DNA from: an uncultured Gammaproteobacteria bacterium
GTDB lineage: Bacteria > Patescibacteriota > Microgenomatia > UBA1406 > GWC2-37-13
Assembly (NCBI GenBank): GCA_964364765.1
Contig: CAYINK010000001.1
Span: 1-27,421 of the forward strand
Direction: 5' to 3'
Length of the DNA stretch: 27,421 bases
Under the pieces are notes generated by a model. That model was not told the DNA's origin, did no database searches, and was given only the letters and a program-made list of their open reading frames with translations. Shown here piece after piece: positions 2,233 through 18,694 of the stretch (position 1 is the first letter of the stretch; each line of letters opens with the position of its first letter). The position numbers were made by a program, and so were the translations under genes.

Positions 2233-4365
2233 ATGTTTAAAATACAAAAATATCTCTATTACCTTCTCTTCCTGATAACCCCCTTCATTATGTATTCCGG
2301 AACGAGTGAACTCTTTGAGTTTAATAAGATGATATACATCTATCTGATCACGTCAAGCATTCTCTGTGTATGGATTTTGCGGATGATCTCACAAGGAAAA
2401 TTCCTCTTTAAAAGAACCCCCTTTGACATACCCATTGCTCTTTTTTTCTTGTCTCAAGTGTTTTCTACGGTCTTTTCAATCGACACGCATACCTCGATCT
2501 TTGGTTACTATGGCAGATTTAACGGAGGATTACTCTCGCTCATTTCCTACTTGATCTTATTCTATAGTTTTATCGAACTTTTTGACAATAAAAAAGAAGA
2601 ATTGGCTCAGTGCATCAAGGATATTTTGAAAATTTCAATCGTCTCATCCACTCTTGTTATATTGTGGGGCTTACCGGGAAGGATTGGATATGATCTTTCG
2701 TGTTTAGTATTTTCTGGAAAGTTAAACAACGCCTGTTGGACCGCTCAATTTGATCCGGCGGCGCGTATGTTTTCAACACTGGGACAGCCCAACTGGCTTG
2801 GCGCTTATCTGGCGATAACTTTTTTTGTCATACTTAATTATTTTTTTGAAGCTTCGGATAGAAAAGAAATACAAAGCCATTATCTGTCCTACTTCGGTCT
2901 TGTATTTTTAACACTTACAGCTATTTTCTTCACCAATTCCCGTTCGACTATTGCCTCTGTCATCGCGTCTATAGGGTTTGTATTTTTATGGATACTTGTC
3001 AAAAGAGAAAACCTTCAACTGCCATTTCTCAAGAAGAAATTGGTTCTTCTTCTAGCAGGGCTTGTATTCTGTGTTGTTGTTTTCAAAACGGGCATCAATC
3101 AAATTGACAAGTATCTATCATTACCACAACCTAAAGCACCTGTTGTGGTACAGACGAAGACGCAGACCCCGCCATCCGCATTCAAAGTTTCAGAGTCAAT
3201 TGACATCCGCAAGATTGTGTGGAAAGGAGCAGTGAATCTGGGTCTTCAGTATCCTCTTTTTGGCACCGGGGTCGAAACATTTGCCTACTCATATTACTTT
3301 GTAAGGCCTGGCGAACACAACCTCACTTCAGAATGGGATTATCTCTATAACAAAGCACACAATGAGTACTTAAACTTTTTTGCCACAACCGGTGTCTTCG
3401 GACTCGCAACCTATCTTCTCTATCTTGGTGCCGTTATTACACTCGGATTGTATTGGAGTTATAAATCCGCTTCATTATTACAATTAAGTTTATTGGTTGC
3501 ATGGATAACCATCCTCATCAGTAATTTTTTTGGATTTTCAACAACCACCATCAACCTCTATTTTTACCTCATTCCGGCTTTGTTATATGGTCTTGAGTTA
3601 TTGAAAGATAACAAAATTCAATCAAAAAAAGTACTGTCAAAGGCAGAATCGAATAACACAATAGCCTACCTAGCTGTTGGTCTTTTCTATGTGTTTCTTC
3701 TTCAATTTTTCATTACGTATTGGTGGGCGGATACCAAATATGCTCAAAGTGAAATATACGCAAAAACCAACGACTACCAAACCGCATATACCCTTTTAAA
3801 TCGAGCTATTCAGCTTCATGGGGATCATGTATACAATGATAAGCTATCATTTGATCTTGCAAATCTGGCACTTATTGCCTCATATCAGAAAGATGCAAAA
3901 TTATCAGAGGAACTTATCAAAACCTCAAATAATTATAATGAGCTAGCCCTCAAGGAATCCCCACAAAATATTTTGTACTGGAAAACACGAATAAAAAATC
4001 TATATCTCTTTTATCAGATTTCGCTAAATAAAAAATATTTGACGGCCGGCATTGAAGCCCTTTCTGAGGCGCAAAAGATATCACCTACCGATCCAAAGCT
4101 CCCCTACTTTTCAGCCACTTACTACTCTCTTATCTTTGATGAGGAAAGGGACCTTGCTAAAAAAGGAGAATTACAAAAGAAATCTCTTGAAGCAATTGAC
4201 CTTTCTCTTAAATTGAAAAGTGATTACTATGAAAGTTATTACTTAAAGGCTCAACTTCTCAAGAAATACAAGATGAAGAAACAGGCAAGAGAAGTATATG
4301 AGTTTATTCTAAAAAATGTAAGTCCCAATAACAAACAAGTACAGGATGAATTAAAAAGTCTTTAA
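2233..4365 (+). CDS. O-antigen ligase family (Wzy_C; PglL/TfpO-like oligosaccharyltransferase) protein with C-terminal TPR-like region
   Basis: Motifs RMFSTLGQPNWLGAYL, FTNSRS, IRKIVWKGAV...PLFGTGVETF, YNKAHNEYLNFFATTGVFG; multi-TM N-terminus; helical TPR-like tail (AYTLLNRAIQL, ALSEAQKISPTDP, SLKLKSDYYESYY). Confidence 0.85.
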   Translation: MFKIQKYLYYLLFLITPFIMYSGTSELFEFNKMIYIYLITSSILCVWILRMISQGKFLFKRTPFDIPIALFFLSQVFSTVFSIDTHTSIFGYYGRFNGGLLSLISYLILFYSFIELFDNKKEELAQCIKDILKISIVSSTLVILWGLPGRIGYDLSCLVFSGKLNNACWTAQFDPAARMFSTLGQPNWLGAYLAITFFVILNYFFEASDRKEIQSHYLSYFGLVFLTLTAIFFTNSRSTIASVIASIGFVFLWILVKRENLQLPFLKKKLVLLLAGLVFCVVVFKTGINQIDKYLSLPQPKAPVVVQTKTQTPPSAFKVSESIDIRKIVWKGAVNLGLQYPLFGTGVETFAYSYYFVRPGEHNLTSEWDYLYNKAHNEYLNFFATTGVFGLATYLLYLGAVITLGLYWSYKSASLLQLSLLVAWITILISNFFGFSTTTINLYFYLIPALLYGLELLKDNKIQSKKVLSKAESNNTIAYLAVGLFYVFLLQFFITYWWADTKYAQSEIYAKTNDYQTAYTLLNRAIQLHGDHVYNDKLSFDLANLALIASYQKDAKLSEELIKTSNNYNELALKESPQNILYWKTRIKNLYLFYQISLNKKYLTAGIEALSEAQKISPTDPKLPYFSATYYSLIFDEERDLAKKGELQKKSLEAIDLSLKLKSDYYESYYLKAQLLKKYKMKKQAREVYEFILKNVSPNNKQVQDELKSL

Positions 4366-4369
4366 AACA

Positions 4370-4894
4370 TTAAGGAATGGTGGGCATAGGAGTGATGGGG
4401 GTTGCGTTTGAGCTACTCATGATGAATTTACATACACCGCATGCACCACAGGTTGGAGCTGAGCCACAAGGAGTTGGCTCTGGTCCCTGACAGTATCCTC
4501 CGTTACTCACACCAGGTCCTTTGTCGTTTTTGTCATTTTCAATACACGAAAGCAGGTAATAATATTGATTACTTGAATCTACGATGTAAGTATATGAATA
4601 TGATGAATTTGGATCGTCCGGTGTCCGCACCATATATGTTTTGTCTCCAGTTAAACACGAAGTGCTACTGCAAAAACGGGATCCAAAAGGGGGTGCGCCA
4701 GTTGGGTATGCGTTATTATCTTCATAATACGTCTCCAAGGCCCTCTGAATCTGTGCGAGATCATTCTTACGCTTCGCATCTCTCCCCTTTTGGAGGGAGG
4801 TAATGTAGTTACCAGAAATTAAAGCGGTGAGGAAGCCTAAGATGATGATAATAATGAGAAGTTCAATCAGTGTAAAACCGCGCTCTTTCTTCAT
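4370..4894 (-). CDS. Type IV pilin / PulG-like pilin (orphan, Cys-rich)
   Basis: Class III signal MKKERG|FTLIELLIIIIILG; RDAKRKNDLAQIQRALETYY...YP helix; 8 Cys. Confidence 0.92.
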   Translation of the reverse strand: MKKERGFTLIELLIIIIILGFLTALISGNYITSLQKGRDAKRKNDLAQIQRALETYYEDNNAYPTGAPPFGSRFCSSTSCLTGDKTYMVRTPDDPNSSYSYTYIVDSSNQYYYLLSCIENDKNDKGPGVSNGGYCQGPEPTPCGSAPTCGACGVCKFIMSSSNATPITPMPTIP

Positions 4895-4920: not shown

Positions 4921-4952
4921 ATAATGCAAAGTACAATAATGCAAAGTACTTT
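4921..4952. repeat. 14-bp direct repeat ATAATGCAAAGTAC x2 with overlapping 10-bp palindrome AAAGTACTTT
   Basis: Copies at 4921-4934 and 4936-4949; palindrome at 4943-4952. Confidence 0.8.
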
Positions 4953-4953
4953 T

Positions 4954-5865
4954 ATGATGAAACAAAATACGAATAATGCAAGTCTACCAGTCACTTTTGA
5001 GATTGGAATTATGTGTCATAATGAAGCGCAAAACATAGGGAATCTATTAACTTCTCTTGTCAATCAAACTAGTTGGAAAATGGTAAAAAAAGTAATAGTA
5101 ATATCGAGCGGTTCAACTGACGGAACCGATACAATAGTCAAATCTCACACGAGAAAGAACCCAAAAATTGTCCTCATCAAAGAAAAAAGAAGATTAGGAA
5201 AGGCTCATGCCGTAAATAGATTTCTTGCCATAACAAAAGAAGAAGTAGTGGTGCTCATGGGAGGGGATGTCATTCCTAAGAAAACGACACTGGAGTTCAT
5301 GATAAAACATTTTGATGATAAAGAGGTAGGAATAGTTGGCGCTCATCCTGTCCCACTTAACGATAGGAATACTTTCATTGGATTTGCCGCCCATCTTCTT
5401 TGGAATCTTCATCATCAAATCTCCCTTACTCATCCAAAAATGGGTGAAATGATAGCATTTAGGCGAGTTTTCAAAAAAATCCCTGTTTTATCTGCGGTTG
5501 ACGAGGTGAATATTGAAGCCCTGATACGTGGACAGGGGTATAAGGCAATATATGCGCCCCGCGCAGTTGTCTACAATAGGGGCCCAGAAACATTGAGAGA
5601 ATTTATCTCAAGGAGGCGTAGTAACTACTTCGGGCATTTATCAACAAAATATGAATACAGTTATTTAGTGTCGACATTAAATAATGCACGTGTATTTTAT
5701 TTGATAATCAAAAATTTAAAGTTTAGGCCGACCTATATGATGTTTCTGGGCGGTTCGATACTACTTGAAATCATAAGTCGGATTCTTGGATATGTTGATT
5801 ATAGATTCAAACGGAAGGACCATACGATATGGGACATAGCGAAGACAACAAAAAAACTAAAATAA
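4954..5865 (+). CDS. Glycosyltransferase family 2 (CesA/IcaA-like GT-A with C-terminal membrane segment)
   Basis: IGIMCHNEAQNI, ISSGSTDGT, RLGKAHAVN, MGGDVIP, VDE, PETLREFISRRR. Start uncertain (4924/4939/4954/4957). Confidence 0.85.
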   Translation: MMKQNTNNASLPVTFEIGIMCHNEAQNIGNLLTSLVNQTSWKMVKKVIVISSGSTDGTDTIVKSHTRKNPKIVLIKEKRRLGKAHAVNRFLAITKEEVVVLMGGDVIPKKTTLEFMIKHFDDKEVGIVGAHPVPLNDRNTFIGFAAHLLWNLHHQISLTHPKMGEMIAFRRVFKKIPVLSAVDEVNIEALIRGQGYKAIYAPRAVVYNRGPETLREFISRRRSNYFGHLSTKYEYSYLVSTLNNARVFYLIIKNLKFRPTYMMFLGGSILLEIISRILGYVDYRFKRKDHTIWDIAKTTKKLK

Positions 5866-6557
5866 TACCCGACTTAGAAAGAATTATCCCCGATGATCTT
5901 ATTGCGTACTCGGGGAGGTTGTTTAAAGAGCACATCGATAGATATAATTTTGCGGTGCCGTACGTTCATAATAAAATGGTCGCAGATGTTGCGTGTGGAA
6001 GTGGGTATGGATCTCATCTCCTTGCAAGTAAAGGAGCAAAAAAAGTTATGGGGATTGATTGTGATAAAAAAACAATACAATATGCAAAAAAAAGATATTC
6101 GAGATATAACGTAGCTTATAAAGTTGGAGACGCAAATAATTTATCCCATACTTCAGTATCCATTGACGCAATTGTTTCGTTTGAAACCATTGAACACATT
6201 AAAAAACCATCGGAATTTTTAAGCGAAGCGAAAAGAGTCCTTAAAAAGTCCGGCATACTCATTATCTCAACTCCGAATAAAAAATATTCAATTGGTGATA
6301 ACCCGTTTCATTTTAGAGAGTATGATTTAAGGGGATTTAACCAAGCGCTTAGCAGATATTTTCGGAAAATAACATATTATGGGCAAAGGCCTGTATTCCA
6401 CCTGATTATGCCCTTGTACCGCCTCCTATCTCAAGTCCTACCTTCGATGTTACTTCCTCTTTTGCACATGAGACCGTGGGAAAGATTGGATATCAGGAAA
6501 CTTGACAACATGCACGATGATGGTTATGTCTATTTCATCGCAATATGCAAAAAATAA
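5829..6557 (+). CDS. Class I SAM-dependent methyltransferase
   Basis: ERIIP...HIDRYNFA, VADVACGSGYGS (motif I), IDCD, GDANNL, DAIVSFETIEHI, LKKSGILIISTPN. Confidence 0.9.
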   Translation: MGHSEDNKKTKIIPDLERIIPDDLIAYSGRLFKEHIDRYNFAVPYVHNKMVADVACGSGYGSHLLASKGAKKVMGIDCDKKTIQYAKKRYSRYNVAYKVGDANNLSHTSVSIDAIVSFETIEHIKKPSEFLSEAKRVLKKSGILIISTPNKKYSIGDNPFHFREYDLRGFNQALSRYFRKITYYGQRPVFHLIMPLYRLLSQVLPSMLLPLLHMRPWERLDIRKLDNMHDDGYVYFIAICKK

Positions 6558-7426
6558 AGGAACCAATGGTAGGCATCGTAATCCTTACTCGAAACCGTAT
6601 TGGTGACGTGAAGGAATGTGTGAAATCACTGCAAAGAAATACCTATAAAAATAAAAAAATAATTGTCATTGATGACGCCATAAATGGAGGATATGCGAAA
6701 GGAAATAATTCTGGCATTAGCCGCTTACTTAGACAAAAATGTGCATATATTTTGCTGATAAATGACGATACCGTTTCCAACCCAAATCTTATTTCAAAAC
6801 TGGTCAGATCATTCAATACAGACCCTTCAATCGGGATCGTTGGGCCAACCATAGCGTATTTTAATAAACCCAACATTGTTTGGTATGCGGGCGGAAACTT
6901 GAACCGGTTATTTTGTTTCACCACTCATCCGAACATGAATAAAAACGTGAAGTATGCCCGTACAGGTTACACTGATTTTGTCACAGGATGTTGTATGATA
7001 GTGCGGAATAGCGTGTTTGAAGATAGCGGCTTACTGGACACACGGTTTGAATATTATTTTGAAGATGCCTTTTTCTGTAAAAAAGCTTTAGAAAAAGGGT
7101 ACAAATCATTTGTCATAAAAGATGTTCTCGTAAGACACCGGGTATCCTCAACACTTGGAAATGCAGGAACGAATAGCATGACTCCTCTTAGAGCTTACTA
7201 CTTTGCACGAAACCCTTTCATCATTATAAGAGATGAAAAATCTTTACTTTTAAAATGCACACAGCTTTTGGGGCAATTATTTTTGAGACTCCCCTACCAT
7301 ATGATTCATATTCTTTATTCAGGTCAGTTGCAATCAATAAATTGGTATTTAAAGGGTTTAAGCGAGGGTCTTTGGTATCTTTTGGGAGGAGGTTTGCTGA
7401 ATCATCAAAGCAAAAAAATAAAATAG
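6545..7426 (+). CDS. Glycosyltransferase family 2 (rhamnosyltransferase-like)
   Basis: VGIVILTRN, GGYAKGNNSG, LLINDDT (DXD), DFVTGCCMIV, YYFEDAFF, YYFARN. Confidence 0.88.
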   Translation: MQKIKEPMVGIVILTRNRIGDVKECVKSLQRNTYKNKKIIVIDDAINGGYAKGNNSGISRLLRQKCAYILLINDDTVSNPNLISKLVRSFNTDPSIGIVGPTIAYFNKPNIVWYAGGNLNRLFCFTTHPNMNKNVKYARTGYTDFVTGCCMIVRNSVFEDSGLLDTRFEYYFEDAFFCKKALEKGYKSFVIKDVLVRHRVSSTLGNAGTNSMTPLRAYYFARNPFIIIRDEKSLLLKCTQLLGQLFLRLPYHMIHILYSGQLQSINWYLKGLSEGLWYLLGGGLLNHQSKKIK

Positions 7427-8647
7427 AGCAACAAAATAATATTGGTTAAAAAAGCTGAGATGCATAAAGTAGCCCATGGCAAACGTCATAAGAAAAACTT
7501 TCATGACGATATTAGATTTACGTAAAAGAAATATTTTCACACTAACTGCAAAAAGAACGAGCCCCGAAATACTGTATAAATAAACAGTTTTGATGTTTGG
7601 CAAAAACTGCTTAATAAATACCTGAAAACTGAGTGCCATATCGGTGGGTGTGCTTCTTACCGCCTGCGGATAAAATACCGCTCCAAACATGGCAAAGAAA
7701 GTATTGGATAAAAAGGATGACGGACTCAGAAAAAGATAGAAGACGATTAGAAAAAAAGGAGCAAGAAAAAAAACAAACTTTCTTCTTAACAACAATCTGA
7801 TATTCTTGTCTAAAATAAAAAAAGGAAAGAGTAAGAGCAAATTTTGCTTGAAGGAAAAAAATAGCGCAAGGAAGAGAATCGATAATGTATATTTTTTCTT
7901 TTGAAAAAAGAAGTAGAAAAGAAGAAAAAAGGAAAATATAATAGGATCCAGATACATGTGTTCAAGCATGTAAAATGATCGGGGAAGAAATAAAAAAGTC
8001 GCAAGCAATATGTTGAGACGATTACCTTCAAATTTATTTTTGAATAACTTTTTCAATAGGAGTACCGAGAGGAGGTTAAAAAAAATAATTGCATACCTGG
8101 GATCATGAAACAGAATAGAAAAAGGCGAAGTGATAAGGAAACTGAAAGGAAGATAATGAAAATGATTGTCAATCTGGGAATAGGTCCGTGTAAATATGGC
8201 AGTATACGGGTTTTGAAAAGTAAGAAGTTTTTGACCCACCTGTGAAAAAACATCAAAGGTGTCAACTATGGGTTTAGGAGATCCCCATAGCGTCCACATA
8301 CCCAAAAAGAGATAGGCTATGAGTACAAGAGGTAATGTATTGAATTTATTTTTTCTTGCATAATGGTTGAAAAAAAGAAATGCGATAAAAGCAAAGAACA
8401 GCACCATCCCTATCAAAGTACTAACTTTATTTTGATATAATCCTCCATAGAAGAAACAAGCATAAAACAAAAGAGCAAAACAGACCTCAGTAGTCAAGGG
8501 GTTGCGGTCAAAATCAAGACTTTTTCCTCGTATGAGAAAAACAAAAATCAAAGTCAACAATAAAAATGAAAGGGGCGAGAAAAATCCTAAGTTTGGAGTG
8601 ATGGCGAAAAAAAATAGTATCAGTATCATGCCATATATTCCGGTCAT
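7358..8647 (-). CDS. Integral membrane GT-C glycosyltransferase-like protein (GT87/PIG-M-like)
   Basis: Multi-TM; PIVDTFDV after early TMs; NPY...FHYLPFSF...DPRY; EHMYLDP; FSFKQN. Start 8647 chosen because an extended -10 lies 7 nt upstream (alternatives 8656, 8629). Confidence 0.55.
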   Translation of the reverse strand: MTGIYGMILILFFFAITPNLGFFSPLSFLLLTLIFVFLIRGKSLDFDRNPLTTEVCFALLFYACFFYGGLYQNKVSTLIGMVLFFAFIAFLFFNHYARKNKFNTLPLVLIAYLFLGMWTLWGSPKPIVDTFDVFSQVGQKLLTFQNPYTAIFTRTYSQIDNHFHYLPFSFLITSPFSILFHDPRYAIIFFNLLSVLLLKKLFKNKFEGNRLNILLATFLFLPRSFYMLEHMYLDPIIFSFFLLFYFFFQKKKYTLSILFLALFFSFKQNLLLLFPFFILDKNIRLLLRRKFVFFLAPFFLIVFYLFLSPSSFLSNTFFAMFGAVFYPQAVRSTPTDMALSFQVFIKQFLPNIKTVYLYSISGLVLFAVSVKIFLLRKSNIVMKVFLMTFAMGYFMHLSFFNQYYFVALFYFFALMIQQTSSQKIPKTLA

Positions 8648-10766
8648 TTTGATCATTGTAACATATGTATTATTTTTTCTCTTATTGAGAGGAAAACTTC
8701 TCTTTACTCCTGATTTTGACCGAAGTGACGCGTTCCACCTAAATATATCTTTAAAATATTACCTTGCACAAGTGCTTAAACAAAACCAGCTCCCATTTTG
8801 GACGAATCTATTGCAGGGGGGGTTTCCCCTCTTTGCCGAGGGGCAAATAGGAGCGTTATTTCTCTCCAATATTTTTTTTCTTCGTTTTTTTGATTTTGTA
8901 AGCGCCTACAACGCACTTTTCATATTCGCTCTCTTTTCATTAACTCTAGGCATGTATGCATTACTGAGAAGTTTATCAACCTCAAAACTCCTTGCACTTT
9001 TGTACAGTTTCATTTTTACTTTTTGTGGCGCCATTAGTTTCCGGTGGGTGCACCTTAATGTTTTACAAACACTTTCTTTTGCTCCCCTATTATTCTGGAG
9101 CATTTTAATGTGGCACCGAGTGACGAAAGCCCGTTATGCATATCTTTCCGTATTATTGTCATCTCAAATATTATTTGCAGGACATATACAGATTGCTTTT
9201 ATCATCTTTCTTGCACTTTCCTTGTGGTATTTCCTCATTCTTTTAGCAAAATATAGAGAGATTAAGCGAATCATTTTCCCCTATTTTAAATACATTATCT
9301 TGCTCATAAGCGCTGTGATTATTGCGCTCCCTCAAATAATTCCCACTTTTCAATTAACCCGATACTCAACACGAGGGGTCGTGGGAGGATACCAGTACGC
9401 AACTCAGTATTCTATGCCAGGAAATCACCTTGTATCTTTTATTTCTCCTTATCTGTTTGGAAACCCTAAATTGGGGACATATCCTGAATTTCCCTCAAAT
9501 GCCGGTGTATTCTGGGAAAATACTCCATACATTGGTGAATTGCTGTTTATTCTTCTTTGTATTCTTTATATGTATTTACTGGTAAGAAGGAAGATAAACA
9601 TTCAAATTAACCTTTATTTTTTTCTTACTCTATTGTTTACTTTGCTTTCTTTGGGAAAAAATTCCCCGTTATATTTTATTTATGATATATTTCCCATTAA
9701 TGTCTTCCGTACACCTGCAAAATATTTATTGATGACCATTTTTTTTCTTATTATTGGCGGATCTCTTCTCACTCAACATTTTATAGACATTATTAAAAAG
9801 CCTTTTTTAAAGGTCTGTATCTATTTATTATTGTTTGGTAATTTAATCATACTGATGTATACAATCATTAACTACCATGTTTTTGTGGATGCTAAAAAAG
9901 TATTAAGTAAACCCCTCATTTCTCAAAAACTTGGCCCAAATGATACCTATCTCACCTATGGTTTTGACCGATTATGGCACATATATTTTGCAAAAAACGG
10001 ATGGAAAACAAACAAAGACATTGATTCTTACGTGTCAATGAACAATTATCTGATACCAAACTCAAATCTTATCTATGATCAAAAGACGTTTGATATTAAT
10101 ACGGGCGGACTGAGACTGCGGAGGGCCGATTATTTCACAGACCGCATCGGAGAAGCCCTATTTGCAAGCGATTCTGCTTTACTTTCTTCAGTTCAAGCCA
10201 GAAATCTATTGGAAATTGGAGGAATTGACTCAATAATTTCAGCAAAGACATTCATACTTCCCATCTTTAATAATTCTGAAAAGATACAGAAAGATAATAT
10301 AACAATATTTCTCAGCAAGAATACCGTTGATACTTTGCCGTACTACATTCCTCATATAGGTCGCTCGATTCAGTACCTGGATGATTTCACTGGACTGAAC
10401 AAAAAGGGCCTTGTGTCAACAAATGAAGCAGTTCTTGAGGGATATAAAGATTTTGTGCAGGATCCGCAGGATTACATCACCGAATACACTGAAACCGAAA
10501 ATCAATTAATACTGAGCACATCATTTCCACGTGACACATTTATGGTATTGAGGAGAAATTGGTACCCGGAGTGGAGTCTGGAGATTAATGGTAATTCTGT
10601 CCCCTTTTTCCGTGCTAACTTAATTCATATAGGTGTGTTGGTACCAAAAGGGTATCACAAAGTTATTTTGTCATATCGTCCCATATTCTTTTTTCAAGGA
10701 GTAATCATCGCCATTAGCTTCATGTTCTTCCTTGTTTTATTAAAATTCATTAAGCGGAGTTTTTGA
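8628..10766 (+). CDS. YfhO family membrane protein (GT-C fold)
   Basis: DRSDAFHL...LPFWTNLLQGGFPLFAEGQ; FAGHIQ; C-terminal RNWYPEWSLEING...RANLIHIGVLVPKGYHKVILSYRP plus a final TM. Start 8628 or 8601; the ORF-track start 8502 is implausible. Confidence 0.8.
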   Translation: MPYIPVILIIVTYVLFFLLLRGKLLFTPDFDRSDAFHLNISLKYYLAQVLKQNQLPFWTNLLQGGFPLFAEGQIGALFLSNIFFLRFFDFVSAYNALFIFALFSLTLGMYALLRSLSTSKLLALLYSFIFTFCGAISFRWVHLNVLQTLSFAPLLFWSILMWHRVTKARYAYLSVLLSSQILFAGHIQIAFIIFLALSLWYFLILLAKYREIKRIIFPYFKYIILLISAVIIALPQIIPTFQLTRYSTRGVVGGYQYATQYSMPGNHLVSFISPYLFGNPKLGTYPEFPSNAGVFWENTPYIGELLFILLCILYMYLLVRRKINIQINLYFFLTLLFTLLSLGKNSPLYFIYDIFPINVFRTPAKYLLMTIFFLIIGGSLLTQHFIDIIKKPFLKVCIYLLLFGNLIILMYTIINYHVFVDAKKVLSKPLISQKLGPNDTYLTYGFDRLWHIYFAKNGWKTNKDIDSYVSMNNYLIPNSNLIYDQKTFDINTGGLRLRRADYFTDRIGEALFASDSALLSSVQARNLLEIGGIDSIISAKTFILPIFNNSEKIQKDNITIFLSKNTVDTLPYYIPHIGRSIQYLDDFTGLNKKGLVSTNEAVLEGYKDFVQDPQDYITEYTETENQLILSTSFPRDTFMVLRRNWYPEWSLEINGNSVPFFRANLIHIGVLVPKGYHKVILSYRPIFFFQGVIIAISFMFFLVLLKFIKRSF
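8655..8663 (-). promoter_or_regulatory. Extended -10 promoter TGtTACAAT inside the yfhO-like coding sequence
   Basis: Minus strand reads TGTTACAAT-GATCAAA-ATG(8647). Confidence 0.45.
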
Positions 10767-12734
10767 AGTGTCAGAGTTTTTATCCATGATTTTAATAATT
10801 TTATTGAGGTTTGGATTGTTGTTTTCACATTTTTTATAATAATCTTTTAGTGATGGCAATAACCCTGAATTTTCAAAAAGTTTATTCAAGTCAATAGAAT
10901 TCAAATAAAATTTAGCCTCAACACACTTCGCCTGGTATACCAACAAATTCACGAGAACCAATTTTGATTTGGTGTCGTTTTTTCGGTATTTATCAATGAT
11001 GTCCTTAACAATCATCACTGACTTGTCTACGTCGCCCGAAGCAAATAGGAGCTTGCCATAGTTAAAGTAACTATTAATGTAATGGTCTTGCACAACATTA
11101 AGATGTAATATCTTTTTTAATTCTGCATCCATTTCAGGTATTTTGTAAACACGACTCCAAAGGAGCTCATTTTCCTTGAGGAGTTGTTCAGTTTCGGATG
11201 AGATTGTCACCTCCGTTTTATAATACTTCCATAACAGACCATAAGGTTTCCAGGCTCCACCTCGGGCATTATCAAAATAAACTCCAAAGCGTGCGTTGCG
11301 TTTGACAAAATCACTTAGATCCTTATTCTTATCATACGGCTCCGGTATAGAAAGCTCAGGATATTTCACACGTATTTGGTCTCGGTAGTATTTTTTGTCA
11401 AGAATGTTGATAAAAATAAACTTAACATCTTTTCGATACCCCTCTGCAAAATGGTAATATGCGGTTGTAAAGTAGCTGTTGTCAGCGCCCACAAAAAATA
11501 TGGCACCCGCGGGGACCGTATCCAATAAATTTTTAGCATAAATGGCAAAATAATCAAGCTTTGGAACCCTTTTAATTACCTGATAATTTTGAAATACAAT
11601 GATGCCTAAATAGCTTATCAAAAAGAGAGAATAACCATACATAAGAACTTTTTTTAAGTAAGCGTTCTTTATCCACTTCCGTGAGAGTTTTATCAATACT
11701 TCGTATGAATAAGCCACTCCATACGCAAGAGGGATGATAAATAGCAGGTAAATGGGTATGAGGAAGCGCTCATACATGGCAATGGTGAAGGAGCCCGAGA
11801 GACTGAAGTTAGTATAAAAAAGAAAAAATAAGTGAAAAAGCATAGTTACCGTAAAAAAAATAAACATCTGCCTATTACTTCTTCTTAAACGGAATATGCC
11901 AATGATGGCAAAAAATAAACCCATAATGCGAAAATCATGGAGGGCAAATATAAAAAAGGAAAAACTATCAAATAGCTGGTTTGTTATGCTTCCAGAAGAA
12001 CCCATATATGCTTTAAAAACTCCATAAGTTGACCGAGTTATGAGGCGTATAAAACCATCTATTGTTTTCGCATTTTCCCAATCAAGCGGCGGTGAATAGT
12101 GGCTTGCCATCACTGAATACAAATAAAATGAAGCTCCAAGTACAAATGACAACACTGCAAGCAAAAGAACTTTTTTTGTATATTTTTTATGTAAAAAAGC
12201 TTTCCACTTCAATTTTAACAAATAGAGCCATCCGGGAATAAACAGTATAAAAATATGATGATTGCTTACATTGAGTCCTATTAAAAAAAATATGAAATAA
12301 AGGACAAATAAGCTACTTTTTGTTGAATATTGAAATAAAAGAAATGTAATTGCTATAACAAGTAGATTATGAATCGCAAATACTTCTGGTATTTCTGCAT
12401 ACAGCCAGATTGGAAAAAGAAAAAGATACAAGGAGGCCGAAAAAAGAGCAATTAACCGTGGAATTTTTAAATATGTTAATATCCTAAACAGTATGTAGCT
12501 AGTAATGATGGTTGCAACTGAGGAAATCAGTGAGACTCTCCAGGGGGTAGAATAAAACGGAACCAAATAATTTATCGCACGGGAAAGAACTGAATATAAT
12601 GGGTAACCGGGGGGGTGCGCCACACTGAATGTGCTGGCTACAAGAGAAAACTCAGCGCTATCACCGCCAAAAATATAGTGCGACTGATTAAAGAGGAGAA
12701 CTATAAACAAAAATAAGTAATAGAGAAGAATCAT
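10740..12734 (-). CDS. DUF2723-domain membrane glycosyltransferase (TMEM260-like protein O-mannosyltransferase family) with TPR-like tail
   Basis: Signature GGDSAEFSLVASTFSVAHPPGYPLY; YAEIPEVFA; SNHH; PPLDWENAKTIDGFIRLITRSTYG; ERFLIP; GADNSYF. Confidence 0.85.
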   Translation of the reverse strand: MILLYYLFLFIVLLFNQSHYIFGGDSAEFSLVASTFSVAHPPGYPLYSVLSRAINYLVPFYSTPWRVSLISSVATIITSYILFRILTYLKIPRLIALFSASLYLFLFPIWLYAEIPEVFAIHNLLVIAITFLLFQYSTKSSLFVLYFIFFLIGLNVSNHHIFILFIPGWLYLLKLKWKAFLHKKYTKKVLLLAVLSFVLGASFYLYSVMASHYSPPLDWENAKTIDGFIRLITRSTYGVFKAYMGSSGSITNQLFDSFSFFIFALHDFRIMGLFFAIIGIFRLRRSNRQMFIFFTVTMLFHLFFLFYTNFSLSGSFTIAMYERFLIPIYLLFIIPLAYGVAYSYEVLIKLSRKWIKNAYLKKVLMYGYSLFLISYLGIIVFQNYQVIKRVPKLDYFAIYAKNLLDTVPAGAIFFVGADNSYFTTAYYHFAEGYRKDVKFIFINILDKKYYRDQIRVKYPELSIPEPYDKNKDLSDFVKRNARFGVYFDNARGGAWKPYGLLWKYYKTEVTISSETEQLLKENELLWSRVYKIPEMDAELKKILHLNVVQDHYINSYFNYGKLLFASGDVDKSVMIVKDIIDKYRKNDTKSKLVLVNLLVYQAKCVEAKFYLNSIDLNKLFENSGLLPSLKDYYKKCENNNPNLNKIIKIMDKNSDTSKTPLNEF

Positions 12735-12740
12735 GTTTGG

Positions 12741-12749
12741 ATTATATCA
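12741..12749 (-). promoter_or_regulatory. Extended -10 promoter TGaTATAAT for the DUF2723 gene
   Basis: Minus strand reads TGATATAAT-CCAAAC-ATG(12734); perfect consensus. Confidence 0.65.
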
Positions 12750-12781
12750 AAAAAACACCCCCCCGAATCGGAGGGTGTTTT
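12749..12781 (-). terminator. Rho-independent terminator of the major pilin transcript
   Basis: Minus strand reads AAAACACCCTCC-GATTCG-GGGGGGTG-TTTTTTT: 8-bp GC stem with one G-U pair followed by U7, 17 nt after the pilin stop. Confidence 0.85.
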
Positions 12782-12798
12782 GAATTCTCAATTTTAGG

Positions 12799-13356
12799 TT
12801 ACTGGACGCACCAGAAACATGATTGTCCACCTGCGGCTGAAGTACCTCCTGCGGTACAGTCCGCGTAACTTGTCATAGTGCCATCCTGACCTGCGATGGT
12901 ACCAAATTTGGTGTTTGCATCAACTCTGAATGATTTTGATCCTGGTTGAAAGCACACCATCGCACGTTGCGTGCCCGTATTGTTGACAGCTGTAATAAAA
13001 ATCTTATCAAGTTGATCGCTTGAAAGAGTAAAGAAGTCCTGCTTCAACTCTCCGGCATCAATAACCGACTGTATGGAGTTACGTGCTGTTCCCGCTTGAC
13101 CGACAGAACCCCATACAAGTGTTGAAAATGGGAGAGAGCCACCTTTAACTGATGCATATCTAATAAATGAACCTGAAATTTCCGCAACCGTATTACGAAC
13201 ACCAGTATCTGTCCCCTTCTTGATCTGCTCAAGCGGGTCAAGTGCTGCAAGAAGAGCAACTGCTAAAGCACCAAGAAGCGCAATCACGATCAAAAGCTCA
13301 ATAAGGGTAAAACCCTTCGATCTATTCAGGGCAAGACCTTTTTTAAAGTTTTTCAT
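12799..13356 (-). CDS. pilA: Type IV pilin, probable major pilin
   Basis: RSKG|FTLIELLIVIALLGALAVALLAALDPLEQ; 4 Cys; located after pilC with its own strong promoter and terminator, as expected of the major subunit. Confidence 0.88.
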   Translation of the reverse strand: MKNFKKGLALNRSKGFTLIELLIVIALLGALAVALLAALDPLEQIKKGTDTGVRNTVAEISGSFIRYASVKGGSLPFSTLVWGSVGQAGTARNSIQSVIDAGELKQDFFTLSSDQLDKIFITAVNNTGTQRAMVCFQPGSKSFRVDANTKFGTIAGQDGTMTSYADCTAGGTSAAGGQSCFWCVQ

Positions 13357-13365
13357 AATATAATC

Positions 13366-13395
13366 ATATTAGTAAAAACTATTACCGTTTGTCAA
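13366..13395 (-). promoter_or_regulatory. sigma70 promoter of the major pilin
   Basis: TTGACA (13395-13390), 18-nt spacer, TAATAT (13371-13366), 9 nt to ATG. Confidence 0.7.
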
Positions 13396-13409
13396 GGGCT
13401 ATTTATTTT

Positions 13410-14609
13410 TTATTTGAAGGCGGAAGTTAGGTTGTATATAGGAGTAATAACGGAGATAACGAGAAACCCAACGCCGACACCAAGTACCACGAGAATAAGA
13501 GGCTCAATAAGAACAGTTAATGATTTTACTGCAATCTCCGATTCAGCTTCAAAGTAGCGGGATATACGCATGAGAGTATCATCAAGCTTTCCCGTCTGCT
13601 CACCGACGGTAGTCATCTGGACAAGAATGGGAGGATAAATACCTTCATTATCCATAGATTTACCTAACGCAAAACCTTTTTCAACCTGCTTATAAATGTT
13701 TATAAAAGAGTTCCGATATACCAAATTACCCGTTGTTTCAATAATAATATTCAACCCATCCAGAATTGATACTCCTGACGCAATAAGAATGGCCAGCGTA
13801 CGGGTGGTATCAACAAGAGCTGATATCTTGACAATTGGACCAAAGGCAGGTAAATTAAGGGAAACGGTATCAAAAAGTAGTCTCCCCTGCTTTGTACTGG
13901 TATATTTTTTAAATAAAGAAATGAAAATAAAAACGGCAATAATGACAAGCGGCCAAAACCGGGATGAAAAATCTGAAAGGGCGATAAGAATCTTTGTTGA
14001 TATAGGCAGATCAACATTAAAATCTTTATAGAGACCAAGAAGTTTAGGCACCACAAATGTAATCATGACAAACATAACCCCCAACATGCCGATAACCACT
14101 ATCACCGGATAGGTAAGTGCGCTTTTGATTTTTGAATTAAACTCACGTTGTTTTTCAAGATTCTCGGCAAGTTTAAGAAGTATCTCACTTAATTTTCCGG
14201 ATGCCTCACCCGATTTTACAAGTGCGATGTATAAATTAGAGAAATAATCCGGATACTTCCTGAGGGCCGATGAATAGGTATTTCCTTCGGTAACCTCTTT
14301 ATTTAAATTTTGTACGAGGGCAAGAAGTTCCGGTTTTTTAATTTGCTTTTCCAAAATATTGAAGCAGTCTATGAGAGTTAATCCCGCATTCAACATGATT
14401 GCCATCTGGCGGGTGAAGTCTACAATATCGGTAAAATTAATACGGTTGAATATGGAATCAAACTGGGGAAGAATGGATTCAATTTTTTTAACTTCAATGG
14501 GGATGTACCCATTTTTCTTAAGAAAGCCAACTACCTCCTGAGACGAAGCGGAATTGAGGTTGCCGGTTACTACTTTATCTTTCTTGAGGGCTTTATACCA
14601 ATAGTTCAT
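13410..14609 (-). CDS. pilC: Type IV pilus platform protein PilC / GspF family
   Basis: FTRQMAIMLNAGLTL, YIALVKSGEASGKL, IKSALTYP, MTTVGEQTGKLD, LIEPLILVVLG. Confidence 0.96.
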   Translation of the reverse strand: MNYWYKALKKDKVVTGNLNSASSQEVVGFLKKNGYIPIEVKKIESILPQFDSIFNRINFTDIVDFTRQMAIMLNAGLTLIDCFNILEKQIKKPELLALVQNLNKEVTEGNTYSSALRKYPDYFSNLYIALVKSGEASGKLSEILLKLAENLEKQREFNSKIKSALTYPVIVVIGMLGVMFVMITFVVPKLLGLYKDFNVDLPISTKILIALSDFSSRFWPLVIIAVFIFISLFKKYTSTKQGRLLFDTVSLNLPAFGPIVKISALVDTTRTLAILIASGVSILDGLNIIIETTGNLVYRNSFINIYKQVEKGFALGKSMDNEGIYPPILVQMTTVGEQTGKLDDTLMRISRYFEAESEIAVKSLTVLIEPLILVVLGVGVGFLVISVITPIYNLTSAFK

Positions 14610-14612
14610 GAT

Positions 14613-15665
14613 TTATAAAATAAATTTTTCAATCAGATTTTTACGTATGGCGTGTTCCATCGCTGTTTCTTTCGTTATTTGGCCCGCTTTGTATAGTTTT
14701 GATAAATATTTTTCAAAAAGAATAAGCCCCTGTTCTTCTCCTGTCTCGAGGACATTATCAAGCATAAAATTTTTTCCGTCACGAATAATCGAGCTGACGG
14801 AAGGAGTATTCATAAGTATTTCAAAACAGGGGATACGCGATAGATTTGAAATATCTGGAATTAGCCGTTGTGCGATGACACTGACTAAGGATGAGGCGAG
14901 GGAAGATCGTATTTGATACTGCTGGCTCGAAGGGAACACATCAACTATACGGTCAATGGCATCCTTAGCCGATCCCGTGTGTAGAGTTGAAAATACAAGG
15001 TGGCCCGTCTCCGCAATAGTCAAGACGAGTTGAATAGTCTCATAGTCTCTCATTTCTCCGACGAAAACCACGTCAGGATCTTCGCGCAATACTGATTTGA
15101 GAGCGGTAGACCAAGAAAGAGTGTCTTGATGGAGCTCTCTTTGGGATACGATTGATTTTGCGGGCGGATAAGTAAACTCAATCGGATCTTCAATTGTGAT
15201 GATATGGCGGGAAAATTTTTCATTAATTTCATTAATGATAGAGGCCATGGATGTTGATTTACCCTCTCCGGTTGGTCCGGTAAAAAGGACGAGCCCCTGC
15301 TTATAGGAGGAAAAATTATGAAAAATGGAGGGAAGGCTAAGCTCGTCTATTGTTTTAATTTTACTTGGAATCAACCGAAAAGCTCCACTCAAACTTTTTT
15401 TACTGGTGTATATATTTACCCTAAACCTATTCCCATTAAAATCCCAACCAATATCGAGTTCTTTATTTTCAATGAGGAACTGATGTTGTACTTGATTAAG
15501 AAGAGGAATAAGAAGCTTCTCAGTGTCCTCTCCTGTTAATATGCCAAACTCACGGAGGGCTAAAAGTCCGTTATTTATTCGCAGGGTAGGATAATAGTGC
15601 GGAACAATATGCATATCTGAAGCCTTCTTATCGATCGCTATTTGTAATAAATCATTTATTTCCAT
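14613..15665 (-). CDS. pilT: Type IV pilus retraction ATPase PilT/PilU family
   Basis: ASDMHI, RFRVNIY, Walker A GPTGEGKST, TIEDPIE, LREDPDVVFVGEMRD, ETGHLVFSTLHT. Start MEINDLL at 15665, 4 nt after the pilB stop. Confidence 0.95.
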   Translation of the reverse strand: MEINDLLQIAIDKKASDMHIVPHYYPTLRINNGLLALREFGILTGEDTEKLLIPLLNQVQHQFLIENKELDIGWDFNGNRFRVNIYTSKKSLSGAFRLIPSKIKTIDELSLPSIFHNFSSYKQGLVLFTGPTGEGKSTSMASIINEINEKFSRHIITIEDPIEFTYPPAKSIVSQRELHQDTLSWSTALKSVLREDPDVVFVGEMRDYETIQLVLTIAETGHLVFSTLHTGSAKDAIDRIVDVFPSSQQYQIRSSLASSLVSVIAQRLIPDISNLSRIPCFEILMNTPSVSSIIRDGKNFMLDNVLETGEEQGLILFEKYLSKLYKAGQITKETAMEHAIRKNLIEKFIL

Positions 15666-15669
15666 AGAG

Positions 15670-17376
15670 TTACACTTCGGCAATACGAAGAACTTCTTCG
15701 ATCGTGGTGATTCCGTCGAGTGCTTTTAAATAACCATCCTGTTTCATAATAATAAGACTTTCTTTCAGTCCTTGCTGTTCAATTTCTTTCGCTGAGGCTG
15801 AGGAAAGAATAAGTTTGTTGATGGAGGGAGTGATTTTCAAAACTTCAAAAATGGCCACCCTTCCTAAATAGCCTGAAAAATTGCACTCGGTACACCCTTT
15901 TCCCCGGAAAAGCTTCATCGGTTCACCTTTTGTATATTTTGACGGCAACAGGGGTCCGAGTACATTCATTACATTTTCTTTTACTAAAGGGGTGGGTTCA
16001 TACTCTTCTTTGCAAGTGTCGCAGATGCGACGTGCAATTCTCTGAGCTACTGAAGCGGAGAGGACGGATGAAATAAGAAACGGTTCACCTCCCAAATCGA
16101 TAAGACGGGGTATTGCGGTGGCTGAATCGTTGGTGTGAAGGGTTGAAAATACGAGATGGCCGGTGAGCGCGGCTTGGATGGCCAACTGAGTGGTTTCTTT
16201 ATCCCGGATTTCTCCCACCAGAATGATATTGGGATCTTGGCGGAGGAAAGATCGGAGGCCCGTTTCAAACGTTAGACCGGCCTGCGTGTTTACCTGTACT
16301 TGGTTTAAGCCCGAAATTTGATACTCAATAGGGTCCTCGAGGGTCACGATGTTTACCGTGGGTTTATTTAACTTGGTCAAAATAGAGTAAAGAGTGGTTG
16401 TTTTTCCCGAACCCGTCGGACCGGTAACCAGAATAATTCCGTATGGCTTGGTAATCGCCTCTTCAATATCTTTCAGTTGTGTGCCCCGTAGACCAAGCTC
16501 CCCCAGCTGGGGAAGTCCTCCGGTCTTTTTGAGAAGTCTCATGACAATTTTTTCTCCGTGCACAGTAGGCAAGGAGGACACACGAAGGTCCACTTCCTGC
16601 TCCCCCATCTTAAAATTAAAACGACCGTCCTGAGGAATACGCCGCTCATCGATCTTCATCTCAGACAGAATTTTGATTCTTGAAATAAGGGAATCATGGA
16701 TGGTGCGGGGAAGAGTTAATTTTTCCTGCAAAACGCCATCGATGCGATATCTCACCCTCGTTTTATCCTCCTCTGCTTCAATGTGTATATCCGAAGCGCG
16801 TCCTTTCATCGCAAACTCAAGTATTGTGTCAACAATTTTTGCAATGGGGGCTTCTTTCACCACAGTGGTTGCCTCCTTTTGTTTGATTACGTCGCTTGAG
16901 ACTTCTGCAAGAGCCTCCTTTACTTCGGGTGATAATCCGTGAGAGTAAGATATGCTAATACCATGGATAATATCGTCAATGTTTGCCAAAGTGAGAATTA
17001 CCCTCTTATTTGTCTTTTTTTCCAAAAAATCATTGAGATTAAAGTTGAGAGGGTCGCCTGTTGCAACATATACTGATTCGGTCTTCGGGTCATACGCATA
17101 AGGAAGTACATTATAGGTACGCGCCACAGATTCTGGGATAAAATTGAGGGCCTGGGGATCTGCGGCTGATGATGAGATGTCAATGAATGAAACATTGAGA
17201 AAGAATGCCTGAACTTTAAGCACTTCATCTTTTTTTATGGCGCTGTCTTTTAACAGATATTCGTAGATGGGCAGATTTTTATTAAGCGCATCAATCTCGA
17301 TGCGCTCTCCCTGAGCTTCATTGATGACTTTGTTTTCAATCAGTTTTGCAATAAATTGTTTTGGTGAGATTATCAT
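15670..17376 (-). CDS. pilB: Type IV pilus assembly ATPase PilB / GspE family
   Basis: ASDIHIE, RIPQDGR, GPTGSGKTTTLY, LRQDPNIILVGEIRD, LTGHLVFSTLHTND, tetracysteine CDTC...CTEC. Confidence 0.97.
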   Translation of the reverse strand: MIISPKQFIAKLIENKVINEAQGERIEIDALNKNLPIYEYLLKDSAIKKDEVLKVQAFFLNVSFIDISSSAADPQALNFIPESVARTYNVLPYAYDPKTESVYVATGDPLNFNLNDFLEKKTNKRVILTLANIDDIIHGISISYSHGLSPEVKEALAEVSSDVIKQKEATTVVKEAPIAKIVDTILEFAMKGRASDIHIEAEEDKTRVRYRIDGVLQEKLTLPRTIHDSLISRIKILSEMKIDERRIPQDGRFNFKMGEQEVDLRVSSLPTVHGEKIVMRLLKKTGGLPQLGELGLRGTQLKDIEEAITKPYGIILVTGPTGSGKTTTLYSILTKLNKPTVNIVTLEDPIEYQISGLNQVQVNTQAGLTFETGLRSFLRQDPNIILVGEIRDKETTQLAIQAALTGHLVFSTLHTNDSATAIPRLIDLGGEPFLISSVLSASVAQRIARRICDTCKEEYEPTPLVKENVMNVLGPLLPSKYTKGEPMKLFRGKGCTECNFSGYLGRVAIFEVLKITPSINKLILSSASAKEIEQQGLKESLIIMKQDGYLKALDGITTIEEVLRIAEV

Positions 17377-17381
17377 ACCTA

Positions 17382-17416
17382 ACTATAAATATACTAAAAA
17401 AACTTAAGTTTGTGAA
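17382..17416 (-). promoter_or_regulatory. sigma70-like promoter of pilB-pilT-pilC
   Basis: TTCACA (17416-17411), 17 nt, TATATT (17393-17388); alternative -10 TATAGT (17387-17382) 5 nt before ATG. Confidence 0.55.
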
Positions 17417-17433
17417 TTGTTTTTTCAGTATCC

Positions 17434-17488
17434 ACTCATCTAATCCACTTTCTCGCACTATCGTGCTTAAAACTGGAGTAAGATGAGT
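17434..17488. other. 55-nt imperfect inverted repeat (nested hairpin) in the pilB / holB-like intergenic region
   Basis: ACTCATCT/AGATGAGT, TCCA/TGGA and GCAC/GTGC stems are nested around a 4-nt loop. Confidence 0.65.
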
Positions 17489-17503
17489 ATATAGTTATTT
17501 TTC

Positions 17504-17512
17504 TGATAAAAT
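17504..17512 (+). promoter_or_regulatory. Extended -10 TGaTAAAAT for the holB-like gene
   Basis: 13 nt upstream of ATG 17526. Confidence 0.45.
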
Positions 17513-17525
17513 TCAATACGGATAT

Positions 17526-18200
17526 ATGATCCCCCAACTAGTTGTACTGTCATCTAAAAATAAACAAGATAAATACCTTGCAGATTTAGTCACCTCACTA
17601 TCCCTCACCTCCTACGATGTTTTTAAAATCACTCCGGAAAACGACAAAACAGGTCTGGGAATCGATCAAATACGCACTCTTTCTGAAGTAATTCTCACGC
17701 AAACGACCACACAAAGAGTGGTAGTGTTATACTCTTTTGAGACTGCGTCTTTGGAGACACAAAACGCCCTTCTTAAAATATTGGAAGAAAAGACCCTACA
17801 CAACGTCTTCATATTATTTACTAATAATATTGAACGAATTATTCCAACAATCAGATCAAGAGTCCAGGTGGTTGTTCTGGATGAAAAAAGAAAAACGCTT
17901 GATAAAGAATTGACATCCCACATGCAAAACCTATTTGAGGCACTTCAGAATCCAAAAAGCAATTCTTATCTACAACTCGGTGTGTTTTCAATAAAAACAA
18001 GGGAAGATACCCTTTTATTCATTGACAACTTTATTTTATTTTTAAAAGCGCATCTCAGGGAGAAAAATGTAAATAAGGTTGTTGCGATTATAAAAAAATC
18101 TATGCAAACAAAAAATAATATTCTTTCACTCAACACCAATCACCAACTATCCCTTGACAATCTGTTGATTTTCGCCCACAAAACAGTTAGCATGAAGTAA
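17526..18200 (+). CDS. Short DNA polymerase III delta-prime-like (clamp-loader AAA+) protein
   Basis: GIDQIRTL, QNALLKILEE, FILFT, IIPTIRSRVQ match the HolB/DnaX core; no Walker A or Zn module; 224 aa. Confidence 0.7.
   Translation: MIPQLVVLSSKNKQDKYLADLVTSLSLTSYDVFKITPENDKTGLGIDQIRTLSEVILTQTTTQRVVVLYSFETASLETQNALLKILEEKTLHNVFILFTNNIERIIPTIRSRVQVVVLDEKRKTLDKELTSHMQNLFEALQNPKSNSYLQLGVFSIKTREDTLLFIDNFILFLKAHLREKNVNKVVAIIKKSMQTKNNILSLNTNHQLSLDNLLIFAHKTVSMK
18165..18193 (+). promoter_or_regulatory. sigma70-like promoter for the pilin cluster, inside the 3' end of the holB-like gene
   Basis: TTGATT (18165-18170), 17 nt, TAGCAT (18188-18193), 18 nt before ATG 18212. Confidence 0.45.
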
Positions 18201-18211
18201 CCTACCAAAAC

Positions 18212-18694
18212 ATGAAAAAAAAGCAAGGATTTACTTTGATTGAGGTACTTGTTGTCATTGCTATTTTGGCGGGTTTGGTGGCTATCTTATTCCCCAACTT
18301 TATGGATGTGCGTGAACGAGCCCGTGATAATCAACGTAAAGCCGATTTAAAAAATTATCAAAAAGCCCTGGAATTTTATAAGGACAATCAAAATCCGCCC
18401 CAGTATCCGGCTGATGCGTCATTTCCTTTGCCTTGCGCTAACTGGACGGTGTCAGGATTTCAATATATGGTAAAGACACCGGGTGAGCCAACCGGCAACT
18501 GCACCACTAATATAAAAAAATATTATTATCACAGTTATGAACCCGCAGATCCTTTACGCTATGATCTGTATGCCTGTCTGGAAAATAAACTTGATCCTGA
18601 AGGAGGCACAGGTCCAGCGGTTGCTCCCTATTTTGACACTCAGGCGGGATATACCTGCACCAGTGGTATATATTACAAAGTTTCTGAACCATAA
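18212..18694 (+). CDS. Type IV pilin / PulG-like
   Basis: KKQG|FTLIEVLVVIAILAG; RDNQRKADLKNYQKALEFY; 4 Cys. Confidence 0.92.
   Translation: MKKKQGFTLIEVLVVIAILAGLVAILFPNFMDVRERARDNQRKADLKNYQKALEFYKDNQNPPQYPADASFPLPCANWTVSGFQYMVKTPGEPTGNCTTNIKKYYYHSYEPADPLRYDLYACLENKLDPEGGTGPAVAPYFDTQAGYTCTSGIYYKVSEP

Follow-up and report, generated by a model that had tools for sequence, protein, structure and literature searches.

What does a bacterial enzyme of the DUF2723 family glycosylate? The question is raised by a type IV pilus locus of an ultrasmall bacterium, assigned through named homologues to Candidatus Roizmanbacteria (Microgenomates, candidate phyla radiation, CPR), in which a gene for a DUF2723 glycosyltransferase (GT) follows the major pilin gene, pilA. 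The stretch of DNA that we analysed, hereafter the window, comprises 27,421 nucleotides of contig CAYINK010000001.1 of assembly GCA_964364765.1 (G000 in our genome set). An earlier annotation of its letters (the original prediction) had described the two genes as neighbours on one strand, wired together by a fused terminator-promoter, and had nominated the major pilin as the substrate of an enzyme related to human TMEM260. The best-supported answer from the present analysis, to which we give a probability of roughly 0.6, is that the pilin is the substrate. The coordinates place pilA and the GT gene side by side on the minus strand, at the end of the order pilB-pilT-pilC-pilA-GT:

15670-17376, minus strand: pilB, upstream of pilT
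14613-15683, minus strand: pilT, between pilB and pilC
13410-14609, minus strand: pilC (T2SSF platform protein), upstream of pilA
12799-13356, minus strand: pilA, major type IV prepilin of 185 aa (Pfam N_methyl, E 3e-8)
10740-12734, minus strand: TMEM260-family (DUF2723, PF11028) GT-C glycosyltransferase of 664 aa

The literature that we searched assigns a substrate to none of the bacterial DUF2723 proteins, in agreement with the original prediction; it names the family solely in the human TMEM260 study and links no TMEM260-like protein to pilins.

The 664-aa protein matches PF11028 with an E value of 9.8e-18 and a score of 65 bits, where the family cut-off is 24.2. When 56 homologues that share 26-85% identity with the query were combined into a profile, it aligned with human TMEM260 (PDB 9RQL) at an E value of 1.3e-70, profile positions 5-464 pairing with TMEM260 residues 32-490, so that the alignment spans the transmembrane core and reaches into the luminal domain. 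For human TMEM260, a structure preprint (10.64898/2026.03.17.711096) reports that activity depends on residues D52, H67, R264 and Y267, that R355 makes contact with the mannose and that D441 serves as catalytic base; the D52A variant is inactive (PMC10214176). The first five residues align in HMMER to D25, H40, R234, Y237 and R323, and D441 to D418 within a GADNS segment, and all six are invariant columns among the 56 homologues. Such invariance points to selection for catalysis, and the intact residues fit a protein that is probably an active bacterial member of the family. The AlphaFold2 model (predicted local distance difference test score, pLDDT, 91.6) has helices to about residue 387, an alpha/beta domain at 395-505 and an all-helical region at 508-656. 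The top PDB matches from Foldseek were all GT-C enzymes (PglB, ALG12, STT3, ArnT and Pmt4), and TPR/PPR proteins matched over residues 552-653. Two cysteines in the tail, C604 and C636, are also invariant, which would fit an extracytoplasmic location of this part. By all features that sequence and predicted fold can address, the protein is a true TMEM260-family GT-C, and the relationship claimed in the original prediction holds; the O-mannosyl label that it gave the enzyme is a putative one. The assembly has a second PF11028 match, a distant paralogue of 750 aa on contig C48 with no pilin nearby.

Is the pairing with the pilin kept elsewhere? Within the family, the GT was matched in 56 of 121 sampled genomes (37 of 63 genera) and pilA orthologues are present in 97 of the 121. 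Of the 29 loci fetched, 27 have a pilA orthologue directly upstream of the GT gene and in the same orientation, and contig ends cut the remaining pair; coordinates gave the same adjacency in 11 further family genomes, and locus inspection did so in G061 (L094). At class level the GT gene was found in 89 of 301 genomes, and all 29 loci fetched from the other families have the order pilC-pilin-GT; none of our conclusions depends on the unpublished genome G187, which is among the genomes listed for the class. Family and class together thus give pilin-GT adjacency in 56 of 58 loci, contig ends interrupting the remaining two, and the full order pilC-pilA-GT in 44 of the 58, with the rest limited by flank length. 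Outside the class, nine genomes of the phylum had matches: the four best are arranged pilT-pilC-pilin-GT with a different pilin N-terminus, and the five weakest (L087-L091) have no pilin within about 3 kb. The adjacency survey that the original prediction had called for therefore came out positive in both family and class, and for part of the phylum as well. Rearranged loci are informative here, since in them a pilin stays next door although same-strand linkage is lost. The GT gene of G089 and G054 has the reverse orientation and is nevertheless flanked by pilA copies; a GT paralogue in G112 follows a different pilin. As a separate observation, locus L011 (G045:C28) carries three pilA paralogues around the GT gene, two in tandem upstream and one convergent downstream. 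Because the pairing of pilin and GT is kept across the whole class, the enzyme most likely glycosylates the pilin.

The GT gene is also gained or lost at one place. We compared the window with 20 family genomes that have a good pilA orthologue and no GT. In most of these, the gene directly after pilA is a second pilin gene (pilin2); then come a convergent Wzy_C/TPR gene and, as a rule, an MreB-like gene. These flanks are the same as those in the window, where an MreB-like gene again lies beyond the pair:

4370-4894, minus strand: second pilin (pilin2), roughly 160 aa, tail-to-tail with the Wzy_C+TPR gene
2233-4365, plus strand: Wzy_C+TPR membrane protein, in the conserved far flank

The shared flanks mark 4924-12734 as an insertion (or its absence as a deletion) at the pilA-pilin2 junction. 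The GT is both present and absent within five genera (g46, g29, g31, g37 and g59), and the gene is accordingly accessory. The Wzy_C+TPR/pilin2 pair is conserved beside pilA in most of the GT-less relatives (L034-L053), and its Wzy_C+TPR protein may be a TfpO/PglL-like pilin oligosaccharyltransferase. We also observed that in 11 GT-less loci (L037, L041-L044, L046, L048-L051 and L053) an opposite-strand gene of about 230 aa precedes pilA in the place of pilC, so that the pilin locus is detached from pilBTC there.

The presence of the GT further goes along with the type of pilin. The prepilin of the window has the leader MKNFKKGLALNRSKG followed by FTLIELL, and the mature protein has four cysteines. 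In its AlphaFold2 model (pLDDT 89) a long N-terminal helix (18-70) is followed by a loop and a beta sheet, the alpha-beta loop, at mature residues about 56-63, lying right before the first strand; this loop contains the motif LPFST. Among the pilin orthologues of L004-L053 and L103-L112, four cysteines were counted in 34 of 38 GT-linked pilins and six in 18 of 20 GT-less ones, the extra pair (PWC...C) usually sitting in the alpha-beta loop. Of five contrasts within genera, four point the same way and one is neutral. As the relatives are no independent samples, this covariation is suggestive only of a link between enzyme and pilin. A second candidate difference, an enrichment of Ser/Thr in the alpha-beta loop of GT-linked pilins, was rejected as the two groups do not differ.

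How, then, are the two genes joined? Three elements bear on this:

13366-13395, minus strand: pilA promoter-like site (TTGACA, 18 nt, TAATAT; a consensus match only, 10/12), ending 9 nt before the pilA ATG
12752-12781, minus strand: hairpin of the predicted intrinsic terminator of pilA (loop GATTCG; stem of 12 pairs, counting the A-U ends)
12741-12749, minus strand: extended -10 element TGATATAAT, a perfect fit to TGnTATAAT, 6 nt before the GT ATG

The hairpin begins 18 nt past the pilA stop codon and has a folding free energy of -18.7 kcal/mol; its stem CACCCTCC/GGGGGGTG with the GATTCG loop lies at 12777-12756 and is followed by a run of seven T at 12755-12749. It ranked first (12 pairs) in a terminator scan of 10000-18500, and the 81-nt fold around it has a minimum free energy of -22.4 kcal/mol (z -2.3). 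A GC-rich hairpin with a U-tract directly at the 3' end of pilA is what predicts an intrinsic terminator. The last T of the run is the first T of TGATATAAT, and CCAAAC (12740-12735) separates this element from the GT ATG at 12734; the string quoted in the original prediction, in which the U-tract runs into the extended -10, was found exactly as given. Its further statement that the hairpin covers the -35 region also proved accurate: the expected -35 position (about 12769-12764) falls within the loop and 3' arm and matches TTGACA at one of six bases. No Shine-Dalgarno sequence fits the six bases between TGATATAAT and the ATG. We predict that transcription of the GT gene begins not at 12735-12740 but at 12734, with the A of the ATG, so that the mRNA would be leaderless. 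Scans of the window for Rfam families and tRNA genes came back empty; the pilA-GT spacer is therefore no known RNA element, and tRNA integration sites are absent. TGATATAAT occurs once more in the window, at 8433-8441 on the plus strand, upstream of a YfhO-family gene, with no start codon 6 nt on.

Counted alone, TGNTATAAT occurs twice in the window against 1.7 expected, no more than chance. Across the whole assembly, 50 of 784 long open reading frames (ORFs) have a TGnTAnnnT that ends exactly 6 nt upstream of the start codon, and 104 of the 784 have one ending at 5-9 nt, over a background of 0-4 per position, whereas Shine-Dalgarno-like words show no enrichment or peak before start codons. 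The sites at 12741-12749 and 13366-13371 are examples of this assembly-wide signal. Owing to the genome-wide peak at 6 nt, the GT promoter can be placed in a real promoter class although the TGNTATAAT count is near chance, and an extended -10 promoter with a leaderless mRNA seems to be the normal start of a transcription unit in this organism. What is unusual about the GT promoter is its direct fusion to a strong terminator: a hairpin and T-run abut only 3 of 201 such promoters, and the GT junction's is by far the strongest. Together with the lack of a Shine-Dalgarno signal in this organism, the peak is useful for start-codon annotation in these genomes.

We scored 62 pilin-to-GT junctions from related genomes for the same anatomy. 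A -10-like hexamer lies 4-11 nt before the GT start in 36 of the 62, at least 23 of these being TG-extended, and a hairpin of -8 kcal/mol or better with a T-run is present in 22. Under a strict automatic rule the T-run flows directly into the extended -10 in nine junctions. Visual inspection gives 12, the automatic count being too low because a later overlapping hexamer was taken in L006, L008 and L079. Terminator stem sequences are entirely different between genera, structure being kept and sequence not. In many other lineages the spacers are 0-35 nt long with no terminator, and overall they range from 0 to 135 nt, with or without one. Moreover, the same terminator and a TGTTATACT promoter precede pilin2 in the GT-less loci L034 and L035, which belong to a genus polymorphic for the GT. 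A GT-specific terminator-promoter fusion was on this ground rejected; the element belongs to the pilA 3' boundary. The idea that the fused element wires the enzyme to the pilin thus survives in part. The fusion is real and recurs, with different stems, in at least 12 other loci; its promoter is of the generic leaderless type, the same fusion occurs before pilin2 without the GT, and many adjacencies have no terminator. As judged from sequence, the terminator-promoter is a locally conserved pilA boundary element built from the genome's generic promoter type. It is predicted to end the pilin transcript and to restart transcription for any downstream gene, insulating rather than coupling the two, and the downstream gene's own start is probably weaker than that of the pilin transcript.

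Between the GT gene and pilin2 lie the remaining genes of the accessory island:

about 8601-10766, plus strand: YfhO-family membrane protein (homologues have PF09586 and are named YfhO family by NCBI)
7358-8656, minus strand: membrane protein, no family assigned
6545-7426, plus strand: second GT2
5829-6557, plus strand: methyltransferase
4924-5865, plus strand: GT2 with a hydrophobic C-terminus

A YfhO-family homologue is convergent downstream of the GT gene in 41 of the 58 loci; in the window the two coding 3' ends overlap by 27 bp (10740-10766), with no terminator between them. The start codon of the window's YfhO-family gene is uncertain, at 8601 or at about 8772 as in the called 664-aa product. 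The divergent long ORFs 7358-8656 (minus) and 8502-10766 (plus) overlap at their 5' ends, so that both starts are probably over-called. Weaker-scoring DUF2723 paralogues within the family adjoin GT2/methyltransferase/GT2 homologues (L096 and L098-L102), which makes these genes a likely donor or glycan-tailoring pathway of the enzyme family. The sole PDB relative of the GT2 at 4924-5865 is a loosely similar crenarchaeal membrane mannosyltransferase (6YV7, E 6e-12); an identity as a polyprenyl-phosphate-sugar synthase of the GtrB/Dpm1 type was considered for it and could not be shown. An NCBIfam search returned no family for the GT, the YfhO-like, the Wzy_C/TPR or the 7358-8656 protein. On the opposite side of the locus are six minor-pilin-like genes and pilM, and all eight pilin-like genes detected in the assembly are on this contig.

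How might these parts work together? We propose that the 664-aa enzyme would be an active GT-C that, at the membrane's outer face, receives a sugar from a polyprenyl-phosphate-sugar and passes it to hydroxyl groups of Ser/Thr residues in the major pilin while this is still anchored in the membrane and not yet polymerised, the best guess for the acceptor site being the alpha-beta loop just past the long N-terminal helix. The GT would form an accessory cassette with the YfhO-family partner and the GT2/methyltransferase genes, inserted at the pilA 3' boundary. In the genus of the window, a strong intrinsic terminator would end the highly transcribed pilA message, and the GT gene would restart at once from an extended -10 promoter lacking a -35, yielding a leaderless mRNA; the level of a catalytic membrane protein would then be uncoupled from that of a structural subunit. 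Taken as a whole, we hold this explanation to be probable, at the same rough figure as the pilin-substrate reading within it. Several points weigh against it. Because the genomes are related, fewer independent events underlie the adjacency than its counts suggest. GT-less relatives keep a Wzy_C/TPR gene beside the pilin, and this could be the real pilin oligosaccharyltransferase. Most loci outside the neighbourhood of the window have no terminator (22 of 62 have one). The Ser/Thr content of the alpha-beta loop is alike in GT-linked and GT-less pilins (0.246 against 0.218), and in the pilins compared no single Ser/Thr column tracks the GT or is exclusive to GT-linked pilins. To our knowledge, the characterised members of the partner's family, YfhO, glycosylate teichoic acids and not proteins. 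Finally, pilin glycosylation in the CPR is so far a prediction, made for Saccharibacteria, and is stated as an open question (PMC11623550).

The YfhO link leads to the main rival, in which the TMEM260-like enzyme and its partner are a general envelope glycosylation module, acting on a teichoic-acid-like polymer or on many surface proteins, and lie near pilus genes only because envelope genes cluster in small genomes. The frequency of the YfhO-family partner (41 of 58 loci) and the MreB-like gene in the same conserved neighbourhood agree with such a module, as do the weaker DUF2723 paralogues that stand with GT2/methyltransferase genes and no pilin (L096 and L098-L101) and the five distant phylum matches without a pilin neighbour (L087-L091). 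We nevertheless consider it unlikely: the score-defined orthologous group adjoins a pilin in essentially every complete locus, even where inverted or beside a different pilin, gain or loss of the GT takes place exactly at the 3' boundary of pilA, and the human homologue, whose acceptor-activating base D441 is invariant here as D418, acts specifically on proteins.

The adjacency could also be inherited synteny without a functional link, the terminator-promoter being the boundary of two unrelated transcription units. A terminator and a separate promoter do argue against obligatory co-transcription in the window's genus, genomes without the GT have that element before pilin2, and a single class of related, streamlined genomes supplies most of the loci. 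However, the neighbour is still a pilin at GT identities as low as about 27-30% and with spacers of anything between 0 and 135 nt, whether or not a terminator is present; the rearranged loci L092, L093 and L097 still flank pilins; and repeated gain and loss within genera at one site, together with the cysteine covariation, would not be expected of a neutral arrangement, which leaves this account quite improbable. It would take even more to believe that the 664-aa protein aids pilus biogenesis without sugar transfer, as a TPR-bearing pilin chaperone or assembly accessory. Its TPR-like extracytoplasmic domain is what such a role would use, and Pseudomonas pilin alleles are linked to accessory genes of differing roles (PMC11841053); we think it very improbable all the same, as the six donor-binding and catalytic residues are invariant in 56 homologues down to 26% identity.

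Proteins of the TMEM260/DUF2723 family are widespread in bacteria, and a concrete, readily testable candidate substrate would open up the bacterial biochemistry of the family. CPR bacteria rely on type IV pili for host contact. We would give even odds to the broader idea that a dedicated TMEM260-family enzyme coats type IV pili with sugar throughout Microgenomatia and in further CPR classes. The bacterial TMEM260 branch would then have its first substrate, and TfpO/PglL and TfpW would be joined by a third kind of pilin glycosyltransferase. A loop glycan and an extra loop disulfide would be alternative solutions, because GT-linked pilins almost always lack the cysteine pair of GT-less pilins.

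Among the characterised counterparts is human TMEM260 (PDB 9RQL, 9RQM and 9RQN), which belongs to the same PF11028 family, has all six validated residues in common with the window enzyme and shares its three-part build of a GT-C core, an alpha/beta palm and TPR fingers. The human enzyme O-mannosylates the IPT domains of plexins, cMET and RON, whereas the candidate acceptor here is a type IV pilin; unlike human TMEM260, the bacterial enzyme would use a bacterial polyprenyl-phosphate donor at the cytoplasmic membrane. The YfhO/CsbB system of teichoic-acid glycosylation in Firmicutes uses polyprenyl-phosphate-monosaccharide donors outside the membrane. YfhO-family and GT2 genes are likewise present in the island of the window; unlike in that system, the YfhO gene lies here tail-to-tail with a TMEM260-type enzyme at a pilin gene. 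TfpO/PilO and PglL, of the Wzy_C family, glycosylate pilins, and tfpO lies directly downstream of pilA (preprint 10.1101/2020.04.19.049825). They differ from the window enzyme in having an unrelated fold and family and in transferring preassembled, undecaprenyl-diphosphate-linked oligosaccharides; their possible counterpart in the window is the separate Wzy_C+TPR gene (2233-4365) beside pilin2.

The closest parallel in layout is TfpW of P. aeruginosa group IV, a 646-aa GT-C with 11 transmembrane helices and a C-terminal TPR domain, whose gene lies immediately 3' of pilA; it transfers D-arabinofuranose oligomers to Ser/Thr of the pilin, mainly to Thr64 and Thr66 in the alpha-beta loop (preprint 10.1101/2020.04.19.049825). 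The published motifs of TfpW set the two enzymes apart. Its DDX motif in periplasmic loop 1 has no equivalent in the window enzyme, where loop 1 reads GGDSAEF, the protein has no DD, and none of the 56 homologues has DD in residues 16-47; its proline-rich YX6PFX7P motif near the TPR domain is absent from the window enzyme and from all 56 homologues. By these motifs alone, we treat the window enzyme as an analogue from another GT-C family and not as a member of TfpW. What the two share is the GT-C and TPR build and a gene directly downstream of the major pilin gene, a common layout that is no proof of homology, and the Thr64/Thr66 sites of the Pseudomonas pilin lie at about the same position as the LPFST loop of the window pilin. 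Pilin glycans of Pseudomonas protect against pilus-specific phages, and a pilin GT that comes and goes as an accessory gene in the CPR would fit a similar phage-type arms race. In both systems the logic is alike: a pilin allele comes with its own accessory transferase.

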